This document shows positions 2,431 through 63,789 of a stretch of DNA of 64,000 nt, piece by piece; positions within the stretch are counted from its first letter, which is position 1; each line of letters begins with the position of its first letter. Origin of the DNA: Octopus vulgaris (taxonomy: Eukaryota); NCBI GenBank assembly GCA_951406725.2, contig OX597831.1, positions 65,782,001 to 65,846,000 on the forward strand, in the 5' to 3' direction. The notes under the pieces were generated by a model, which had not been told where the DNA came from, searched no databases, and saw nothing but the letters and a program-made list of their open reading frames with translations. A program made the position numbers and the translations under genes.

Positions 2431-2906
2431 TATTTGTCAATGCCTAATTTTCTTAGTTTAGTTACTGTAAGTAATACCCTGTCAAATGATTTCTCCAAGT
2501 TAGCAAAGGCCAGAAATTATGTTTACTCTTAATTAAGTATTCCTGCTGTTGCCTCACAAGAAAAATTGCATTTGTGACATCGCTTCCAGGTACAAAACCA
2601 AACTGTATCTCACCTAGGTCTATCCTATCATGAGCCAATTGTCTAATGACTCTTTCTGTGACCTTTAATACCTGATCCAGTAAATTTGATTCTCCAACAA
2701 CTACTTCTCTCTAATGTATCTCGTTTGCCTTTGTAGTTGTTTATGATGCTGCTGCTATGCCAGTCATTGGGTTTAACTCCTTGATTAACTATCCAAGTGG
2801 TGATCCCGAATATCCTTCCTCACTGGATATTTTGAACATGTACGTGAGCATATGTAATGTGTGTGTGTATATGTGTGTGCATAAATAGTATACATACATA
2901 TATATA

Positions 2907-7818: not shown

Positions 7819-8279
7819 ACAGAGAATAAACATAAAAATTACAGTAAAGAAATTAGTGAATTAAAGTTTTCCTTTTTGGATAAAAGCTTACAGAAAAGTG
7901 ACAACAACAAAATTAACTTGACCTTAAGCCTAAGCCGATGACTTTTAATCTATTTTTATAAACGTTGCTAAATGCAGTTTCTCCATAGCCAGAGGTAGTG
8001 TTGTTCGCAGAATTGACAATGAATTAATGACCTGGAATTATTGATTTTGGTTTCACATGGATTGTTTTTTCAACTATGTAAATTAATGTTTATGTTGTGG
8101 TAGAAAAAATTGTTAGTTCAGAAAGATTCTTCTATTAAGAATCTCTATCAGATTCTGATTAAATATTTGGAGGGTTTTCATACTTCTTCAAGTTGTTGCA
8201 ACCAAGATGGGTCTTACAATGCAGTGCCAAAAATATCTGAAACCCATTAGCTTTGCTAGATCTTCAATTTCATGTTGTT

Positions 8280-8665
8280 GAATGACCAGAAGAGAATTAA
8301 TGCATTCGAGCTTTGGTATTGGAGAAGACTTTTACGGATTCCATGGACAGCGAGGCTCACCAATGGAGAAGTTCTTAAGCAGATCAGGCCGAAAATGTCG
8401 CTAGAAGCTAGGATCACCAAGCATCGATTGGCATATTTCGGTCATATTATGCAGAGAAAATCCCTGGAGAAGGACATCATGCTCGGAATGGTCAGTGGCA
8501 AGAGAGGAAGAGGCCGACCAAGAACCTGCTGGCTTGACACCATCAAGAGGGATACCAGAATGGACATAGCCAATCTGAAGAAGCGGCCCAGGATAGAACT
8601 GACTGGAGGACACTGATCCAATGAATGACTGAGAGTCGACTTCGACTGAGCGGATAGATAGATAG
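8280..8665 (+). mobile_element. RTE (BovB-like) LINE 3' fragment
   Basis: KRINAFELWYWRRLLRIPWTAR...RLAYFGHIM...GKRGRGRPRTCWLD; terminal GAGTCGACTTCGACTGAG and (GATA)n tail. Confidence 0.85.
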
Positions 8666-13570: not shown

Positions 13571-14541
13571 TTAGGAGAGAGTCAGTCTAGATGACATGCA
13601 GTTTGGGTTTGTGCCAGAGAAAAGCACCACTAATGCTATATTTCTGGTAAGACAGCTGTAGGAGAAATACCTAGACAAAGATAAACCTCTGTACCTAGCT
13701 CTCTTTGACATGGAGAAAGCCTTATCTGGTGGTCAATGAGGAAACTAGGGATAGATGAGAGATTAGAGGGTTGGCAATGAGTACAGTGATGAATTCTAGT
13801 TAGGGTCCACCAAGGATAAGTCCTCAGCCCCCTCTTAGTCATCATAGTCCTCCAGGCAATAAAAGAGGAATTCAAGACAGGATGCCCCTGGGAACTTCTC
13901 TGTGCTGATGACCTTGCTCTAATAGCTGAGTCACTATCAGAACTAGAGGAGAAGTTTCAGGTGTGGAAGCAAGGTCTAAAACCGAAGGGCCTTAGAGTCA
14001 ACCTAGCAAAAACCAAAGTCCTAATAAGTAGGAAGGCAGATAAACCACAAATCCTTTTGGGTTGATGGCCCAGCTCGATCTGTAGAAAAGGCGTAGGTAG
14101 AAACTCCATAAGATGTACCTAGTGTAAGCTATGGACACATAAAAGGTGCAGCAATGCCAAAGGAAGGCTAACTGAGAAGATAGTTTTTGCGTGTGGCAAA
14201 TGCTCAGGAGCTTTTGTCACATTCCAGGGGAAAAAACTACAAGTAGTTGATAGCTTCCATTACCTAGGGGACCAAGTTAGTAGCGGGAGTGGATGCTCTG
14301 AAAGTGTAGCTGCTTGAATAAAAATAACCTGAGCAAAGTTCAGAGAGCTCCTCCTACCTCTGCTGGTGACAAAGGGCTTCTTGCTCAGAGTAAAAGGTAG
14401 ACTGTATGATGCATGTGTGTGAACAGCCATGCTACATGGCAGTGAAACATGGGCCGTGACAGCTGAGGACATGCATAAGCTTGCAAGGAATGAAGCCAGT
14501 ATGCTCCGCTGGATATGTAATGTCAGTGTGCATACACGACA
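13571..14541 (+). mobile_element. Decayed RTE LINE RT region with internal PHD-like finger
   Basis: RVSLDDMQFGFVPEKSTTNAIFLVRQL*EKY, WELLCADDLALIAES, KTKVL, C4HC3-like segment, FHYLGD, MLHGSETW. Confidence 0.88.
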
Positions 14542-21093: not shown

Positions 21094-21922
21094 AATTCAT
21101 GAAGAGTAGTTATTTTGATAAAATAACATCTGATGATGGGGAGAGTATTTCTTTTCTCTTAACGATGGATTATTTCACTGGATATCTATTATTTATTGAG
21201 AATATTCTTTACTTTTAAATAAAGTCTGATATTCTTTATCACTGTTTCCAGTTAATTAAGCTCTGTCCATACTGAAATAGCAGTTACTAAATACTTTGGT
21301 AGTTTTAGAACTAGCAAACTATCAATGTTGTATTAGTTACTAGACAAAACCACAAGAATGCACCTTGGCTAGATTGAACTGTTGAAGGTAATTTCAGTAA
21401 CTGAGGAGTTTATCAAAATGAAAGTGTTAAAATTTCTAAAGCTTCACTTACATTTTATTACACATGAATGAACAGAAACTAGAGGTAGAAGAGTAACAAT
21501 CAAATTTGGTAAGCAAAGGCTAGCAGAGAGCCAGCCCAGATCATGGAGCTGTTTCCACTATGCTTCATACAATCACTGCAGTAATAATGTAGTTTGTATG
21601 GTTTGAGGAGTGTATGAGAATGAGGCCAGTTATTGAAATTATTTTATTCAAAACAACACATCTTGTCTCACTGTAATCGCCCTTTCTCATGAATATCACA
21701 CATGTTACTAAATTGCATTCTACAGTTTTCCTCTCTTGACAAAATACTAAAAATAGTTGGATGTTCAAGCTAAGATAAAGTGAAATTACCTGCAACAGAA
21801 AAATATATTTCTGTAGTGGTCATTACAGCAGTTTTCTTTGCTTGCACGTGAGATATCAATTGGAACTGAACCTGATTTTTAAATCACACTTCAACTCATG
21901 CACTAAATCATAAAAATGTGTA

Positions 21923-22079
21923 AGGAGTGGCTGTGTGGTAAGTAGCTTGCCTACCAACCACATGGTTCTGGGTTCAGTCCCATTGCGTGGCACCTTGGGC
22001 AAGTGTCTTCTACTATAGCCTCGGGCCGACCAAAGCCTTGTGAGTGGATTTGGTAGACGGAAACTGAAAGAAGCCCGTC

Positions 22080-22118
<39 letters not shown>

Positions 22119-22336
22119 CGTGTATGTTTGTGTGTCTGTGTCTGTCCCCCTAGCATTGCTTGACAACCGATGCTGGTGTGTTTATATCCCCGTCACTTAG
22201 CGGTTCGGCAAAAAGAGATTGGTAGAATAAGTACTGGGCTTACAAAGAATAAGTCCCGGGGTCGAGTTGCTCGACTAAAGGCGGTGCTCCAGCATGGCTG
22301 CATTCAAATGACTGAAACAAGTAAAAGAGTAAGAGT
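21923..22336 (+). mobile_element. SINE family B
   Basis: Match to family consensus. Confidence 0.9.
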
Positions 22337-30230: not shown

Positions 30231-30450
30231 GTGGTGTAAAACTGATCATATATTTTCGAAACACCTACTGGTACAACAAACAGTGTAGTTGGCTATTGGC
30301 TGACACAGCTGTGAGAGACTACATATATTAGTATGTGAATGTCCTATGTCAGCCACACACAGAATATTTTTGTAGCACATGTGACACAGTCACTTTGTCT
30401 CTGATGGACAAATGATTGCTTTGTTCATTTCATTCAGGTCCAATGGATCA

Positions 30451-30621
30451 ATGAATAGGTTGTGGGATTCTACGCTAAGGAGAATGGGGCACAATTATAG
30501 CATCCATCAAAGCACTACTGCTGCAGCTACTGTTGTTAGTGCTGCTGTTACTGCTGCTGTTGCTGCTGCTGCTGCTGCTGCCACTACCACTGCTGCTGCT
30601 GCTGCTGCTGCCGAGCATTGA
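30451..30621 (+). other. Upstream ORF with (GCT)n poly-Ala tract in the putative 5'UTR
   Basis: MNRLWDSTLRRMGHNYSIHQSTTAAA...AEH*; lies after a possible acceptor TTTCATTCAG at 30437. Confidence 0.35.
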
Positions 30622-30754
30622 TTGCCTGCACAAAACTAGACCACTACTCATATTTCAGAATTTCACTGAGATTAGGTGGTTTTTTTTCATGCACAAATAG
30701 TAATTATTCAACTCCCCCTCCCCAACCCCTGATTTCTAAGAGGATTTACTATCA

Positions 30755-30846
30755 ATGGCCCAACCAAAAATGCCTCTACGGACAGCGATGTTATCCGTGC
30801 CAGGTAACGAGTCCTTGAGTGCCCGAAGAAGACATTCCTGGATTTG
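30755..30846 (+). CDS. PDE4: Alternative first coding exon of a cAMP phosphodiesterase 4 (dunce-like) long isoform
   Basis: ATG preceded by in-frame TAA (30737); MAQPKMPLRTAMLSVPGNESLSARRRHSWI then TG|GTAAGT strong donor, phase 2; matches PDE4D3 ...RRHSWIC-FDVDNG. The downstream exon is not seen in the window. Confidence 0.72.
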
Positions 30847-33800
30847 GTAAGTTTTTTCCTCTTCATCGATCACTTTTCTGAAGATACCATGCTTTTGCAA
30901 TATCATACAAGTATACTATGTTATAGCTACACACTCTCTCTCTCTCTCTCTCTCTCTGCTACCCTCTCTTTGTTCCTCTTTTCTTTCTTCCTCTCTCTCT
31001 CTCTTCCTTGCTCCCCTTTCCATTTTCTCTCTCTCTCTCTCGCTTCCCTTTCCATTCTCTCTTCCTTTCTCCCCTTTTCATTCTTCATCACTCTCCCTTT
31101 TCCATTCTGTCTCCTTCCAAAGATGCCTGCTGCTAAGTGCAAGCTTCCAAATTATCACTTGACAGTGCATCAGCATGCAGCCGAGGTCTAAATGCCACTG
31201 TCACACCTTACTCCAGCATTGTTTACTTTCATTTACAAACATTACATCTCCCACTTTCATCCTATTACATAAATAACACCACAATGAAGACCCCTGCTTA
31301 TTATATACATCACCTGAATGACAAAGACCCCTATAAGATTCACCCCTCCCCCACTGACACAGCGAAACACTCCAATCCATGCATCACCATCACTACTATA
31401 ACAAAGGACCCTATATATGCCTGCCGCTACCAGAATGACAGACCCTAACAATATACCAACATAATAAAGGAGAAAAATTGAAGCTTTCATTTATTCATAG
31501 TTTGTTTTTATTTTACAAATATCTTGTTCCTCAACATTTCTCCCATTCTGCATATTTGTATGGTTGTGTGTGTGTGTGTCTGTGTGTGAGAATATTCACA
31601 CACACACACACACACATGTTCATGTATGTAGTATGTATGCATAATGTTGTATATAATAAATGCCCGCATATCTATAGACATATACAACACACAAATATAC
31701 AAGATCATTCAGAAGTCCCTTCAGCATTTAAATTTGAATAATATATAAAATTGAAATGTTAAAGGGACATTCTGATCACTGTGTATTACTCATAGACATT
31801 GATTCCTACATACTTTTAGAGATTACACAAAGAATATGCACAGGTAAATGGAAGTATGTACCTTTACCCATGCACACACATACATACACACATCTATACA
31901 CATATGTACATTCATATATATACATATATACATATATATATATATTTATATATATGAAGTATTTGTAAAAATTATCTTTCTGAAACAGTATGTATGCATT
32001 GTTATATATAGTAATTTCTAAAAATATATTCTATGTAAAGTTCAATCAACAGCTACAAACAAGCTGCTGGGTCACCATTAAAATCTTATTGTCATCCATT
32101 GTGAGGAGGAGAGCAAGGCACTCTAGTTGGTCCCACAACTCTCTAAGTTATTGATCATGCTTGACATTTAATAGTAGCACAAGTAAAGTAAGAATTGAAC
32201 CCATGATGTCTTACTAGGAGTTTGCTGTACTTTGTAGCAGTTGCATTTCTTTGCATGTTGCATATATGTACATACAGAAATAATTAAATGTAGGAATGTG
32301 CGCCTGTGTATGCGTATGGGTTTAAGTCTGTATTATGATGTGTGTGTCAAAGCATGCGAGTATGTATGTGTGTGTGTGTGTGTCTGTGTATACATGTGTA
32401 TGTGTGTGTGTATTTGCTTGAGAAAAAATGCTTTTTACTTGTTTATTTAAACAACAATAACTATATAGAGCCGCATGTTGAACTTAGAAAAATGTTGCAT
32501 TTTTTTATATATCCTGTCACAAATTGACTTTAGAGAATATATTTGAAGTACATCACTTCATCCTTGTCCCCAAAACTCCAACTGTACCTATAATTATAAG
32601 TATAAATATGAAACTATAATCCAGTTATTGTAGTTGTATATTGTTAACTAACTATCCATAATTCTTCTTTTTGGTGGCGTTGATTGAGAAGTTTACATCT
32701 GCAGGACATCTGACATTCCCAAGAGTTCGACTTCTTTAGATATTTATTTAGGTTTATGGAATTTAATTTTGTATTATAGGAATGTTCTACAAATGACTTT
32801 GTATTGAAAGTTCCTGATATATTCCATATCGGACATATTTTTGAAACTTCAGGACTATATTTTCTACAGAGCGCATTGCATGTAGTCTCTCTCTTTCTCC
32901 CCGCTCCCCACCACACACATGTATGATACACTTAATTTGGTCCCATAGTTAGATGATGTTCACTGAGTGTAGAACTAGAGCAGCTGAATATATATATAGC
33001 GTTAGATAACTAGTTTTAAAGTCTTGAGTTCAAATTCATTGCAGGTATTTTTTTTTGTACATTTGGACATTTGTGTATTTGTCTTTCAGTTCTTCTAGTT
33101 GTTGGGAATAGATATCAGCTCTTCTGAGAATTCTATGCAAATGAAATTTGTCTTCCGGCTGCTTGACATTTGAAAGTAGTCATAAAGCAGTGATTCTTAT
33201 AAAAGCTCCCTAGGGTTCAGAAAATAATGTTATTTTATATGTTATGATTTCCATAACAAACATGCTGTTGTGAGAATTTCTTTTTAATATTAGATGCATT
33301 CAGGTTTTAATCATTCTGTCTTTCATTAATAATAAATTTTCTAACTACCTCTTGTTCTTGAATTTAAAACCAAAGCTTACAAAAGGTGACTAGCTAAACC
33401 AATTTGAAGACAGAAACAAACTGTCCAGCTTATAGAATATACATCTATTTTTGGTTGGTGCTATGCATTTCTCTTCTAAATCTCAATAAAAACAGATATG
33501 TTTAGCAGTTCTCTGGTTGAATAGCACATCATTATACTTTGAGTGCATTTTTAGGAATTTACTCCTGACTTCTATATGATTCTCTCGTTTTCAAACACCT
33601 CCTCATTGCATTGATTCTCTCCCACCTTGTTGCTTAACTGGTGATATCCAAATAATACCATATGGCACTCAAAACTATCATGATTGGTATGAAGCCTTTT
33701 CTCATTATTTTCTTCTGAAATAGTCTGTCATTATTTCCATGTAAGTTTCCAATTGATGTTAGAATCTTTTGATATCAGAATCCACCATTTGAACATATCC

Positions 33801-35677: not shown

Positions 35678-35915
35678 ATTCTTTTATTCTTTTACTTGTT
35701 TCAGTCATTTGACTGCGGCCATGCTGGAGCCCCGCCTTTAGTCGAGCAAATCGACCCCAAGACTTATTCTTTTGTAAGCCTAGTACTTATTCTATCGGTC
35801 TCTTTTGCCGAACCGCTAAGTTACGGGGATGTAAACACACCAGCATCGGTTGTCAAGCAAGTCAAAGGGAGAAACACATACACACACATACATATGCACA
35901 CACACACACACACAT

Positions 35916-35952
<37 letters not shown>

Positions 35953-36113
35953 CGACGGGCTTCTTTTAATTTCCGTCTACCAAATCCACTCACAAGGCTT
36001 TGGCCAGCACGAGGCTATAGTAAAAGACACTTGCCCAAGGTGCCACGCAGTGGGACTGAACCCAGAACCATGTCGTTTGTAAGCAAGCTACTTACCACAC
36101 AGCCACTCCTGCG
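35678..36113 (-). mobile_element. SINE family B
   Basis: Match to family consensus. Confidence 0.9.
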
Positions 36114-36514
36114 CTTTGATGAATTTTTTTATCGAGTATGAGCCAGTATGTGTGTGTAGGTATATGTGAACATGTGTGAACTCACACACACAAAGCTATA
36201 CTCATCATACTCTCTTCTAATTCTTGGCCTTACTCTCTCTCTGATGATCTTATATGACATTTACGCTGAACAAACGTGGCACCACAAAAACTGTATTTCT
36301 TTTATTAGGTCCACAAAATACTTGAACTCTGATCATTTTTACACTGGAATACTGTTCCACTACTGACACTCACCACTCATATTCCCGTTAAATCTTCACT
36401 CAGCAATATTCTTTGATCATTTCCCTCTGTTCTCCCTGTTTCATCTACTCTTCAATGTTCACTTACTGAATACTTATTTCTTTACTACCCACAAGGGGCT
36501 AAACACAGAGTGGA

Positions 36515-62615: not shown

Positions 62616-62874
62616 ACTCTTTACTCTTTTACTCTTTTACTTGTTTCAGTCATGTGGCTGTGGCCATGCTGGAGCACCGCCTTCAGTCGATCAAATCGAC
62701 CCCAGGACTTATTCTTTGTAAGCCTAGTACTTATTTTATCAGTCTCTTTTTTTTGGCCAAACCGGTAAGTTACGGGGACGTAAACACACCAGCATCGGTT
62801 GTCAAGCGATGTTGGGGGGACAAACACAGACACACAAACATATACACACAAACATATACACACACATACATATA

Positions 62875-62917
<43 letters not shown>

Positions 62918-62928
62918 ATATATATATG

Positions 62929-62960
<32 letters not shown>

Positions 62961-63108
62961 CGACGGGCTTCTTTCAGTATCCGTCTACCAAATCCACTCA
63001 CAAGGCTTTGGTCGGCTCGAGGCTATAGTAGAAGACACTTACCCAAGGTGCCATGCAGTGGGACTGAACCTGGAACCATGTGGTTCGTAAGCAAGCTACT
63101 CACCACAC
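62616..63108 (-). mobile_element. SINE family B
   Basis: Match to family consensus. Confidence 0.9.
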
Positions 63109-63789
63109 ATAATTGATTTAATTTCAAAATAAACAGAAATACAGAAAGACTATACCTTTGGAATATTCCCTTTGAAATTTATATCACATCAGAGACGATC
63201 TTTATACTCTCAGATCTTTTTGAACCTCTGTATGGTAGCATTTACGGTAGTAAGTACTTTTGCTAAGTGAAAAAACTTCAGCAACCCTGAGTGGAATAGT
63301 CAAATGCTTTCCTCAAATTGAACTTATACTGTCACAATGTTTTTGTTGCATTTTCTTATTTTGGACAGCACAGCTTTGGTTATCAAAAGTTTTTTGGCAC
63401 ACCTCCACACTGCTTTCCTTCCACCTGCTTGCTCTTCAGTCACCATGTTGTTGGATTCATGATGATCCTGGAGGGATTGGTTGAGACAGCTGTGCAAGAC
63501 TTGTACAAAATGTTTAGGCAGGCAATAGGCCTATATTTTTCTGACAACGTAGCAGTTTCATTCTTAGCTACAAGATTCGTCTGTGCTAAAGCAAGCCAAT
63601 TTGGTATGGCAATTTGGCCTTCCATAGTTGTTTTGAATATACATATTAAAGGCTTTCTTTAGAAAGTCGATCTTCTATACCAGTATCCAACATTTACATC
63701 TTTTCCAAGTGCCTTTCAATTATGCAGTTTACCAACAGCTATGGTGGATGTTGGTACAGTATTATTTCCCGGCTATATTTAGCCATGAT

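Follow-up and report, generated by a model that had tools for sequence, protein, structure and literature searches.

PDE4 N-termini determine where in the cell cAMP is destroyed. The octopus locus described here raises the question of whether a reading frame of only 30 codons can encode such an N-terminus and, if so, how old the N-terminus is and what it does. The window (the whole 64-kb stretch of DNA that was analysed) is AT-rich with many microsatellites around this reading frame; elsewhere it contains what we take to be LINE reverse-transcriptase-like ORF remnants at 2462-2710 (minus strand), 8260-8616 (plus strand) and 13820-14065 (plus strand), and a multi-copy dispersed repeat, presumably SINE-like, e.g. 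at 21856-22149, 35713-36141 and 62784-63116. The best overall explanation, to which we assign a probability of about 0.8, is an alternative first coding exon of PDE4/dunce with the leader role proposed below. The relevant features are as follows.

30514..30612, plus strand: imperfect CTG repeat, at least part of it inside the transcript 5' UTR (loose end of contig X18 before 30614; contigs overhang here)
30613..30754, plus strand: 5' UTR part of the PDE4 leader exon, under continuous contig cover in three of four runs
30737-30739, plus strand: TAA, in frame with and 5' of the ATG, within the covered exon
30755-30757, plus strand: ATG, start of the 30-codon ORF
30755..30846, plus strand: coding part (30 codons and the TG of a split Cys codon) of an alternative N-terminal PDE4/dunce exon
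30791..30802, plus strand: L-S-V-P, residues 13-16, of the form L-x-[VI]-P, a candidate calcineurin docking motif 12 residues N-terminal of the serine
30804..30809, plus strand: GTAACG, donor-like (CCAG/GTAACG), phase 1 (49 nt), out of frame with UCR1a
30824..30846, plus strand: RRRHSWI(C), PKA consensus, with Ser28 (30836-38) corresponding to PDE4D3 Ser13; phosphorylation predicted
30847..30852, plus strand: GTAAGT, splice donor, phase 2, used (loose ends at 30846 in X2, X3 and X18)

Translated, the 30 codons read MAQPKMPLRTAMLSVPGNESLSARRRHSWI and are followed by TG (30845-46) and GTAAGT (30847-52); the distance from ATG to donor is 92 nt, which makes the donor phase 2. A preliminary description of this DNA had reported the 30-codon ORF, the upstream in-frame stop and the RRRHSWI-TG end at a GTAAGT donor, and all of these can be read in the window. 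The combination of motif and donor, a pattern picked after the site was seen, has a single occurrence in the window and none in 100 dinucleotide shuffles.

Assembled sequencing reads indicate that this donor is used. Contigs of runs X2, X3 and X18 cover the genome from 30613 or 30614 to 30846 and leave it exactly at 30846, and past this point they share the loose end TG/T-TTT-GAT-GTG-GAA-AAT-GGT, which continues the reading frame as C-F-D-V-E-N-G-Q-A-P. This is the octopus PDE4 UCR1a exon, FDVENGQAPG (P0062). Because the genome reads GTAAGT where the contigs diverge, the contigs are spliced, and the predicted splicing from 30846 into PDE4 is thereby borne out. The contigs derive from three of four runs, belonging to three studies and three coded organisms (A, B and E); the fourth run, X17, is probably DNA and gave no contig. 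The query was matched by 20 read sets from eight studies, none of them recorded as RNA. Among 14 sets guessed to be RNA, 13 contain 0.74-0.81 of the query words, the share that the exon, with 234 of 288 bases, would give by itself, and one contains 1.00.

The donor-like sequence at 30804 had been put forward as a means of skipping the motif. CCAG/GTAACG is present in the sequence, but the phase of this site is wrong for an in-frame variant and no loose end occurs there in the X2, X3 or X18 contigs, and a motif-skipping variant of this kind was rejected.

Within the 64-kb window, motif scans and tblastn with 11 octopus and argonaut PDE4 proteins found no further PDE4 exon: the leader exon was matched at E 1e-13 and everything else at E >= 0.89. 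Thus the expectation of a PDE4 gene downstream on the plus strand holds insofar as the spliced contigs reach UCR1a, but not within the window itself, and since the window holds no PDE4 exon downstream the intron to the UCR1a exon must exceed 33 kb. The window exon is an alternative first coding exon of octopus PDE4/dunce, spliced over this intron onto the common UCR1a exon. The term "first exon" used previously applies to coding sequence only. Contigs extend about 60 nt 5' of 30613, into the CTG repeat, and the exon need not be the first one transcribed.

The 5' region shows several further features. In-frame ATGs are found at 30755 (T at -3), 30770 (A at -3) and 30788 (G at -3), and a start at the last of these, Met12, would give M-L-S-V-P, comparable to MLTVP in Mytilus and MLQVP in Lingula. 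An out-of-frame upstream ORF, 30412-30621, runs through the CTG repeat and would encode 45-69 aa of poly-Ala, and a 3-codon upstream ORF lies at 30689-30700; both may restrict translation if they are transcribed with the exon. A candidate splice acceptor is located at 30436-37, 5' of the contig-covered stretch. Relative to the window, organism E carries two substitutions in the 92 coding bases (30787 and 30796), both at synonymous third positions, these being only two sites, while its approximately 140 UTR bases (30614-30754) have no substitutions and one inserted base. The 5' UTR may be conserved as well.

The weak context of the first ATG and the presence of upstream ATGs could be taken to mean that the motif arose by chance, or that the exon is non-coding or cryptic and has no role in protein. 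This is highly improbable given the in-frame splice in three studies, the exclusively synonymous substitutions, the absence of the pattern from all 100 shuffles and the conservation of the protein sequence across phyla described below.

The exon itself is not new. The window peptide is identical (30/30) to residues 1-30 of XP_014768220.1 (P0130), Octopus bimaculoides PDE4 isoform X4, which continues with C-FDVENGQAPG exactly as the spliced contigs do. The PDE4 leader isoform is therefore already in RefSeq as an automated prediction, named just "PDE4C isoform X4" with no functional note in the name. Together with the spliced contigs, this identity supports the earlier proposal of a PDE4D3-like isoform in a cephalopod. 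The product is a long-form PDE4 that opens with a 31-residue leader ending RRRHSWIC; the matching RefSeq model is 694 aa long. The presence of UCR and catalytic PDE domains was judged by proxy from P0130, the remaining gene lying beyond the window: P0130 falls in one cluster with P0062, a protein with PF18100 and PF00233, and its place in the tree described below is among molluscan PDE4. At least 15 of the 27 members of the octopus PDE4 cluster were considered, XP_014768220.1 among them. The PDE4 seed was obtained by scanning metagenomes for the UCR1 motif, which gave 92 loci, and the UCR1 region as a query gave 3344 matches, of which 120 were listed. Searches with the 30-aa peptide alone gave blanks that reflect the length of the query: no matches by phmmer among 1.84 billion representatives, none among PDB sequences, and only sub-0.8 bacterial clusters in the ESM Atlas. 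The spliced junction motif gave no matches in the metagenome scan.

Leaders ending in RRHS[WF][IVM] are widespread. A profile built from eight leaders gave 283 matches, and of the taxa named here those other than Biomphalaria, Lingula, Lineus, Tubulanus, the beetles, the bugs and the scorpion are from the 120 listed. The leader end lies directly before FDV[DE]NG in Biomphalaria, Lingula, Lineus and Tubulanus, and among molluscs it was also found in Mytilus by the profile search; the leader end followed by FDV[DE]NG was recovered from other molluscs, where a search had been suggested. In arthropods it adjoins the common exon in beetles, bugs, a wasp, a moth, copepods, an amphipod, ticks, Limulus, Pycnogonum and a scorpion, and the profile also matched fragments from krill and shrimp. 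Arthropod and nemertean leaders have one or two extra residues ahead of the junction. Chordates with this leader end at the start of the common exon include Branchiostoma, Ciona, Styela, lamprey, sharks, rays, bony fish, frogs, a turtle, birds and a bear. A comparable arrangement is present on the invertebrate metagenome contig L051, where an ATG-started exon ending RRHSWMC is followed by a phase-2 donor, a 444-nt intron and the UCR1a exon:

L051:1483-1323, minus strand: RRHSWMC exon, with the UCR1a acceptor at 879 and L-S-V-V-P in place of L-x-V-P

This contig was confirmed as a PDE4-UCR look-alike and seems nematode-like.

In a tree of the common region of 26 PDE4 proteins, motif-bearing isoforms fall in the vertebrate 4B (98/94), 4C (93/89) and 4D (97/98) clades, and octopus PDE4 falls outside the vertebrate paralogue clade; P0334 is a long branch of unsure placement. 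No motif-bearing 4A was identified among the 26 proteins. The octopus exon was first described as PDE4D3-type, which is right for the motif and its junction but not as a PDE4D-specific assignment, the motif being carried by 4B, 4C and 4D alike. Not all groups have yielded the leader. RRHS[WF] was found in 0 of 121 dipteran PDE4/dunce proteins in a sample of annotations, 89 of them long forms, and no named dipterans are among the 120 listed of the 283 profile matches, so that it is possible that the isoform was lost in Diptera. The motif was likewise absent from four Glandiceps isoforms and from the listed Haliotis and chiton isoforms, these being samples of annotation only.

The spread of the leader over Bilateria and three vertebrate paralogues makes inheritance from the bilaterian ancestor, before the vertebrate genome duplications, its most likely origin, although the block common to octopus and vertebrates amounts to only about seven residues plus exon position and phase. 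The suggestion that a regulatory N-terminus known from a vertebrate isoform may be ancient is in keeping with this, the cross-phylum leaders placing the motif far before vertebrates. A different view was taken in 2010 in PMC2929239, the available text of which considers PDE4 N-termini to be independent in origin through sequence drift, young and gene-specific, with conservation of PDE4D long-form N-termini mainly mammalian, and calls only the pair PDE4B5/4D6 homologous; that survey, in the same portion of text, sampled one invertebrate. On such a view the RRHSWIC end could be a repeated convergence on a PKA consensus beside a splice donor, and the block is indeed short and RRxS common. Convergence is nevertheless unlikely, as H-S-W-I-C holds more than a PKA consensus requires and hardly varies from molluscs, a brachiopod, nemerteans and arthropods to amphioxus, tunicates, lamprey and three vertebrate paralogue clades, and the leader end always adjoins the same junction. 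The comparison of leaders across phyla thus argues against independent, mainly mammalian N-termini. No report of cross-phylum conservation of the leader, or of its L-x-V-P motif, was found in the open-access literature; the available part of PMC6436744 does not treat N-termini.

The leader can be compared with better-known PDE4 leaders. Human PDE4D3 residues 1-14 are MMHVNN/TFPFRRHSW in the excerpt available from PMC2173774, in agreement with the residues quoted in the preliminary description. The likeness to mammalian PDE4D3 lies in RRHSW(IC) adjoining the start of the UCR1a exon, with the serine at an equal offset from the junction. The octopus leader differs in its length (31 aa versus about 16) and in having L-S-V-P, which is missing in 52 of 52 chordate versions. 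Vertebrate PDE4B and PDE4C leaders ending RRHS[WF][IV]C (P0258, P0264, P0316, P0334, P0350) share motif and junction and differ in having L-x-V followed by a non-proline residue; the PDE4B isoform with this leader is presumably the one named PDE4B4. By analogy, the octopus leader would work like that of PDE4D3 without being the orthologue of PDE4D specifically, and Ser28 is quite probably a target of PKA and the counterpart of PDE4D3 Ser13. Ser13 had been linked to mAKAP binding. A tie to AKAP targeting is supported by PMC7770493 and PMC12699188, whereas PMC7770493 doubts PDE4D3 as the native mAKAP partner in heart, in each case as far as the available text goes. In molluscs, available passages of PMC4580752 describe the long, short and supershort forms of Aplysia ApPDE4, whose alternative N-termini target the enzyme. 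The Aplysia short form begins with a different sequence, judging from a primer given in the accessible text of PMC6567041, and identity of the octopus leader with that form was ruled out.

A conserved L-x-V-P upstream of the PKA site was missed by the earlier description, and its occurrence as L-x-[VI]-P in protostome PDE4 leaders is new here. Of 93 distinct motif-bearing N-termini, 39 of the 41 from protostomes have it and none of the 52 from chordates, a tally that is biased in that part of it comes from a profile containing the LxVP columns and in which unnamed proteins were labelled chordate or protostome from sequence. The comparison free of this bias used a leader-independent set, gathered with UCR1 alone as the query and through cluster membership (300 proteins with 122 distinct 12-residue ends; ends of less than 14 residues and proteins lacking UCR1 were dropped). 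Here L-x-[VI]-P accompanies 8 of 8 RRHSW ends versus 1 of 114 other ends (Fisher P 9e-12, with the eight ends sharing descent and so not being independent events). The distance from L-x-[VI]-P to the PKA serine is 9-13 residues in 37 of the 39 leaders, and the linker sequence is not conserved. Leaders lacking the canonical core are P0268, P0356 and that of L051. Many arthropod leaders (P0017, P0107, P0240, P0243, P0244, P0246, P0294) show a second L-x-[VI]-P, often L-R/K-[VI]-P-E, 24-36 residues before the serine.

LxVP is a docking motif for active calcineurin (PMC4516873, in the text available). According to the accessible part of PMC3582496, the phosphosite follows LxVP by 9 residues in RII and 10 in RCAN1, the minimum being 9-15, and a basic residue is favourable at -3; in TAK1, LDVP occupies 422-425 and the PKA site is Ser439, 14 residues on (PMC13022171, as excerpted). 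The octopus leader resembles the PKA RII peptide and TAK1 in its LxVP core (L13-S-V-P16), a phosphosite within 9-14 residues, here 12, and a basic residue (Arg) at -3; RCAN1 is comparable for spacing only. It differs in two respects. The prefix A-M misses the strict definition [NQDESRTH]-[YTDFILV]-L-x-V-P given in the available text of PMC5156906, which 9 of 41 protostome leaders match; in 27 of 41 the Leu is preceded by a hydrophobic residue. Position -1 to the serine is His and not Arg, the residue reported to enhance calcineurin action. The link to calcineurin is a prediction, and the octopus leader is proposed to act like a calcineurin LxVP substrate, not classed as one.

The same exon, of the same age, might use L-x-V-P differently, as the N-terminal half of a bipartite hydrophobic epitope for an anchoring protein, mAKAP-like or other, comparable to the vertebrate M-[ML]-x-V. 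Such sequences stand at a similar distance in vertebrates, as in MLTVK (frog P0263), MLHVS (bear P0258) and MMHVN (PDE4D3), and resemble MLTVP of Mytilus P0248; the low share of strict calcineurin prefixes and the tie of PDE4D3 Ser13 to AKAP targeting also favour an epitope. The vertebrate M-[ML]-x-V thus appears to support homology and yet permits an epitope unrelated to calcineurin. A linker of 9-13 residues with free sequence better fits a tethered docking site plus phosphosite, and the proline is almost invariant in protostomes. An anchoring epitope is a serious possibility, if one we hold at somewhat less than even odds.

Calcineurin docking, the preferred reading, is itself given slightly less than an even chance: the protostome L-x-[VI]-P, 9-13 residues upstream, would dock Ca2+/calmodulin-activated calcineurin, which would remove the Ser28 phosphate. 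Phospho-Ser28 would set the anchoring of the enzyme, with the RRHSWIC end binding a scaffold such as an AKAP, and a separate UCR1 site would set catalytic activation, such that PKA acting on the leader and UCR1 serines would close a local negative-feedback loop on cAMP. In this scheme the leader would serve as a switch, turned on by PKA and off by calcineurin, through which Ca2+ could shift PDE4 between compartments. Chordates would have retained the PKA site but not the docking motif in its proline form. Tentatively, and with odds somewhat against it, the long PDE4 leader of the bilaterian ancestor may have been a self-contained PKA/calcineurin switch that is whole in protostomes, degenerate in its docking half in chordates and apparently lost as an isoform in flies.

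A second shared PDE4 leader, none of it in the window, ends in RRHTLANVR and occurs in octopus, abalone, snail, chiton, brachiopod, nemerteans, flies, beetle, crab and scorpion (P0134, P0137, P0143, P0156, P0172, P0188, P0193, P0206, P0045, P0112, P0232, P0422, P0116, P0123, P0004, P0453). It resembles hemichordate RRFTLANVC, amphioxus RRHTMHC and vertebrate RRRFTVAHTC, and is probably another ancient PKA-site exon, one that is kept in Drosophila.

With the RRHS leader common to molluscs, arthropods, invertebrate chordates and three paralogues of vertebrates, the Ser13 module seems to have an old partner, which may not be mAKAP, and a Ser13-type module becomes open to study in molluscan neurons. 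The protostome LxVP suggests that calcium may control where PDE4 is targeted, by a route other than the known action of calcineurin on the catalytic-domain phosphodegron of PDE4 (PMC12699188, in the text available). Since flies appear to have lost the isoform, dunce genetics, if this loss is true, could not have revealed such a switch. If the switch is real, Ca2+ would be coupled directly to cAMP at the memory phosphodiesterase of molluscs and most arthropods.
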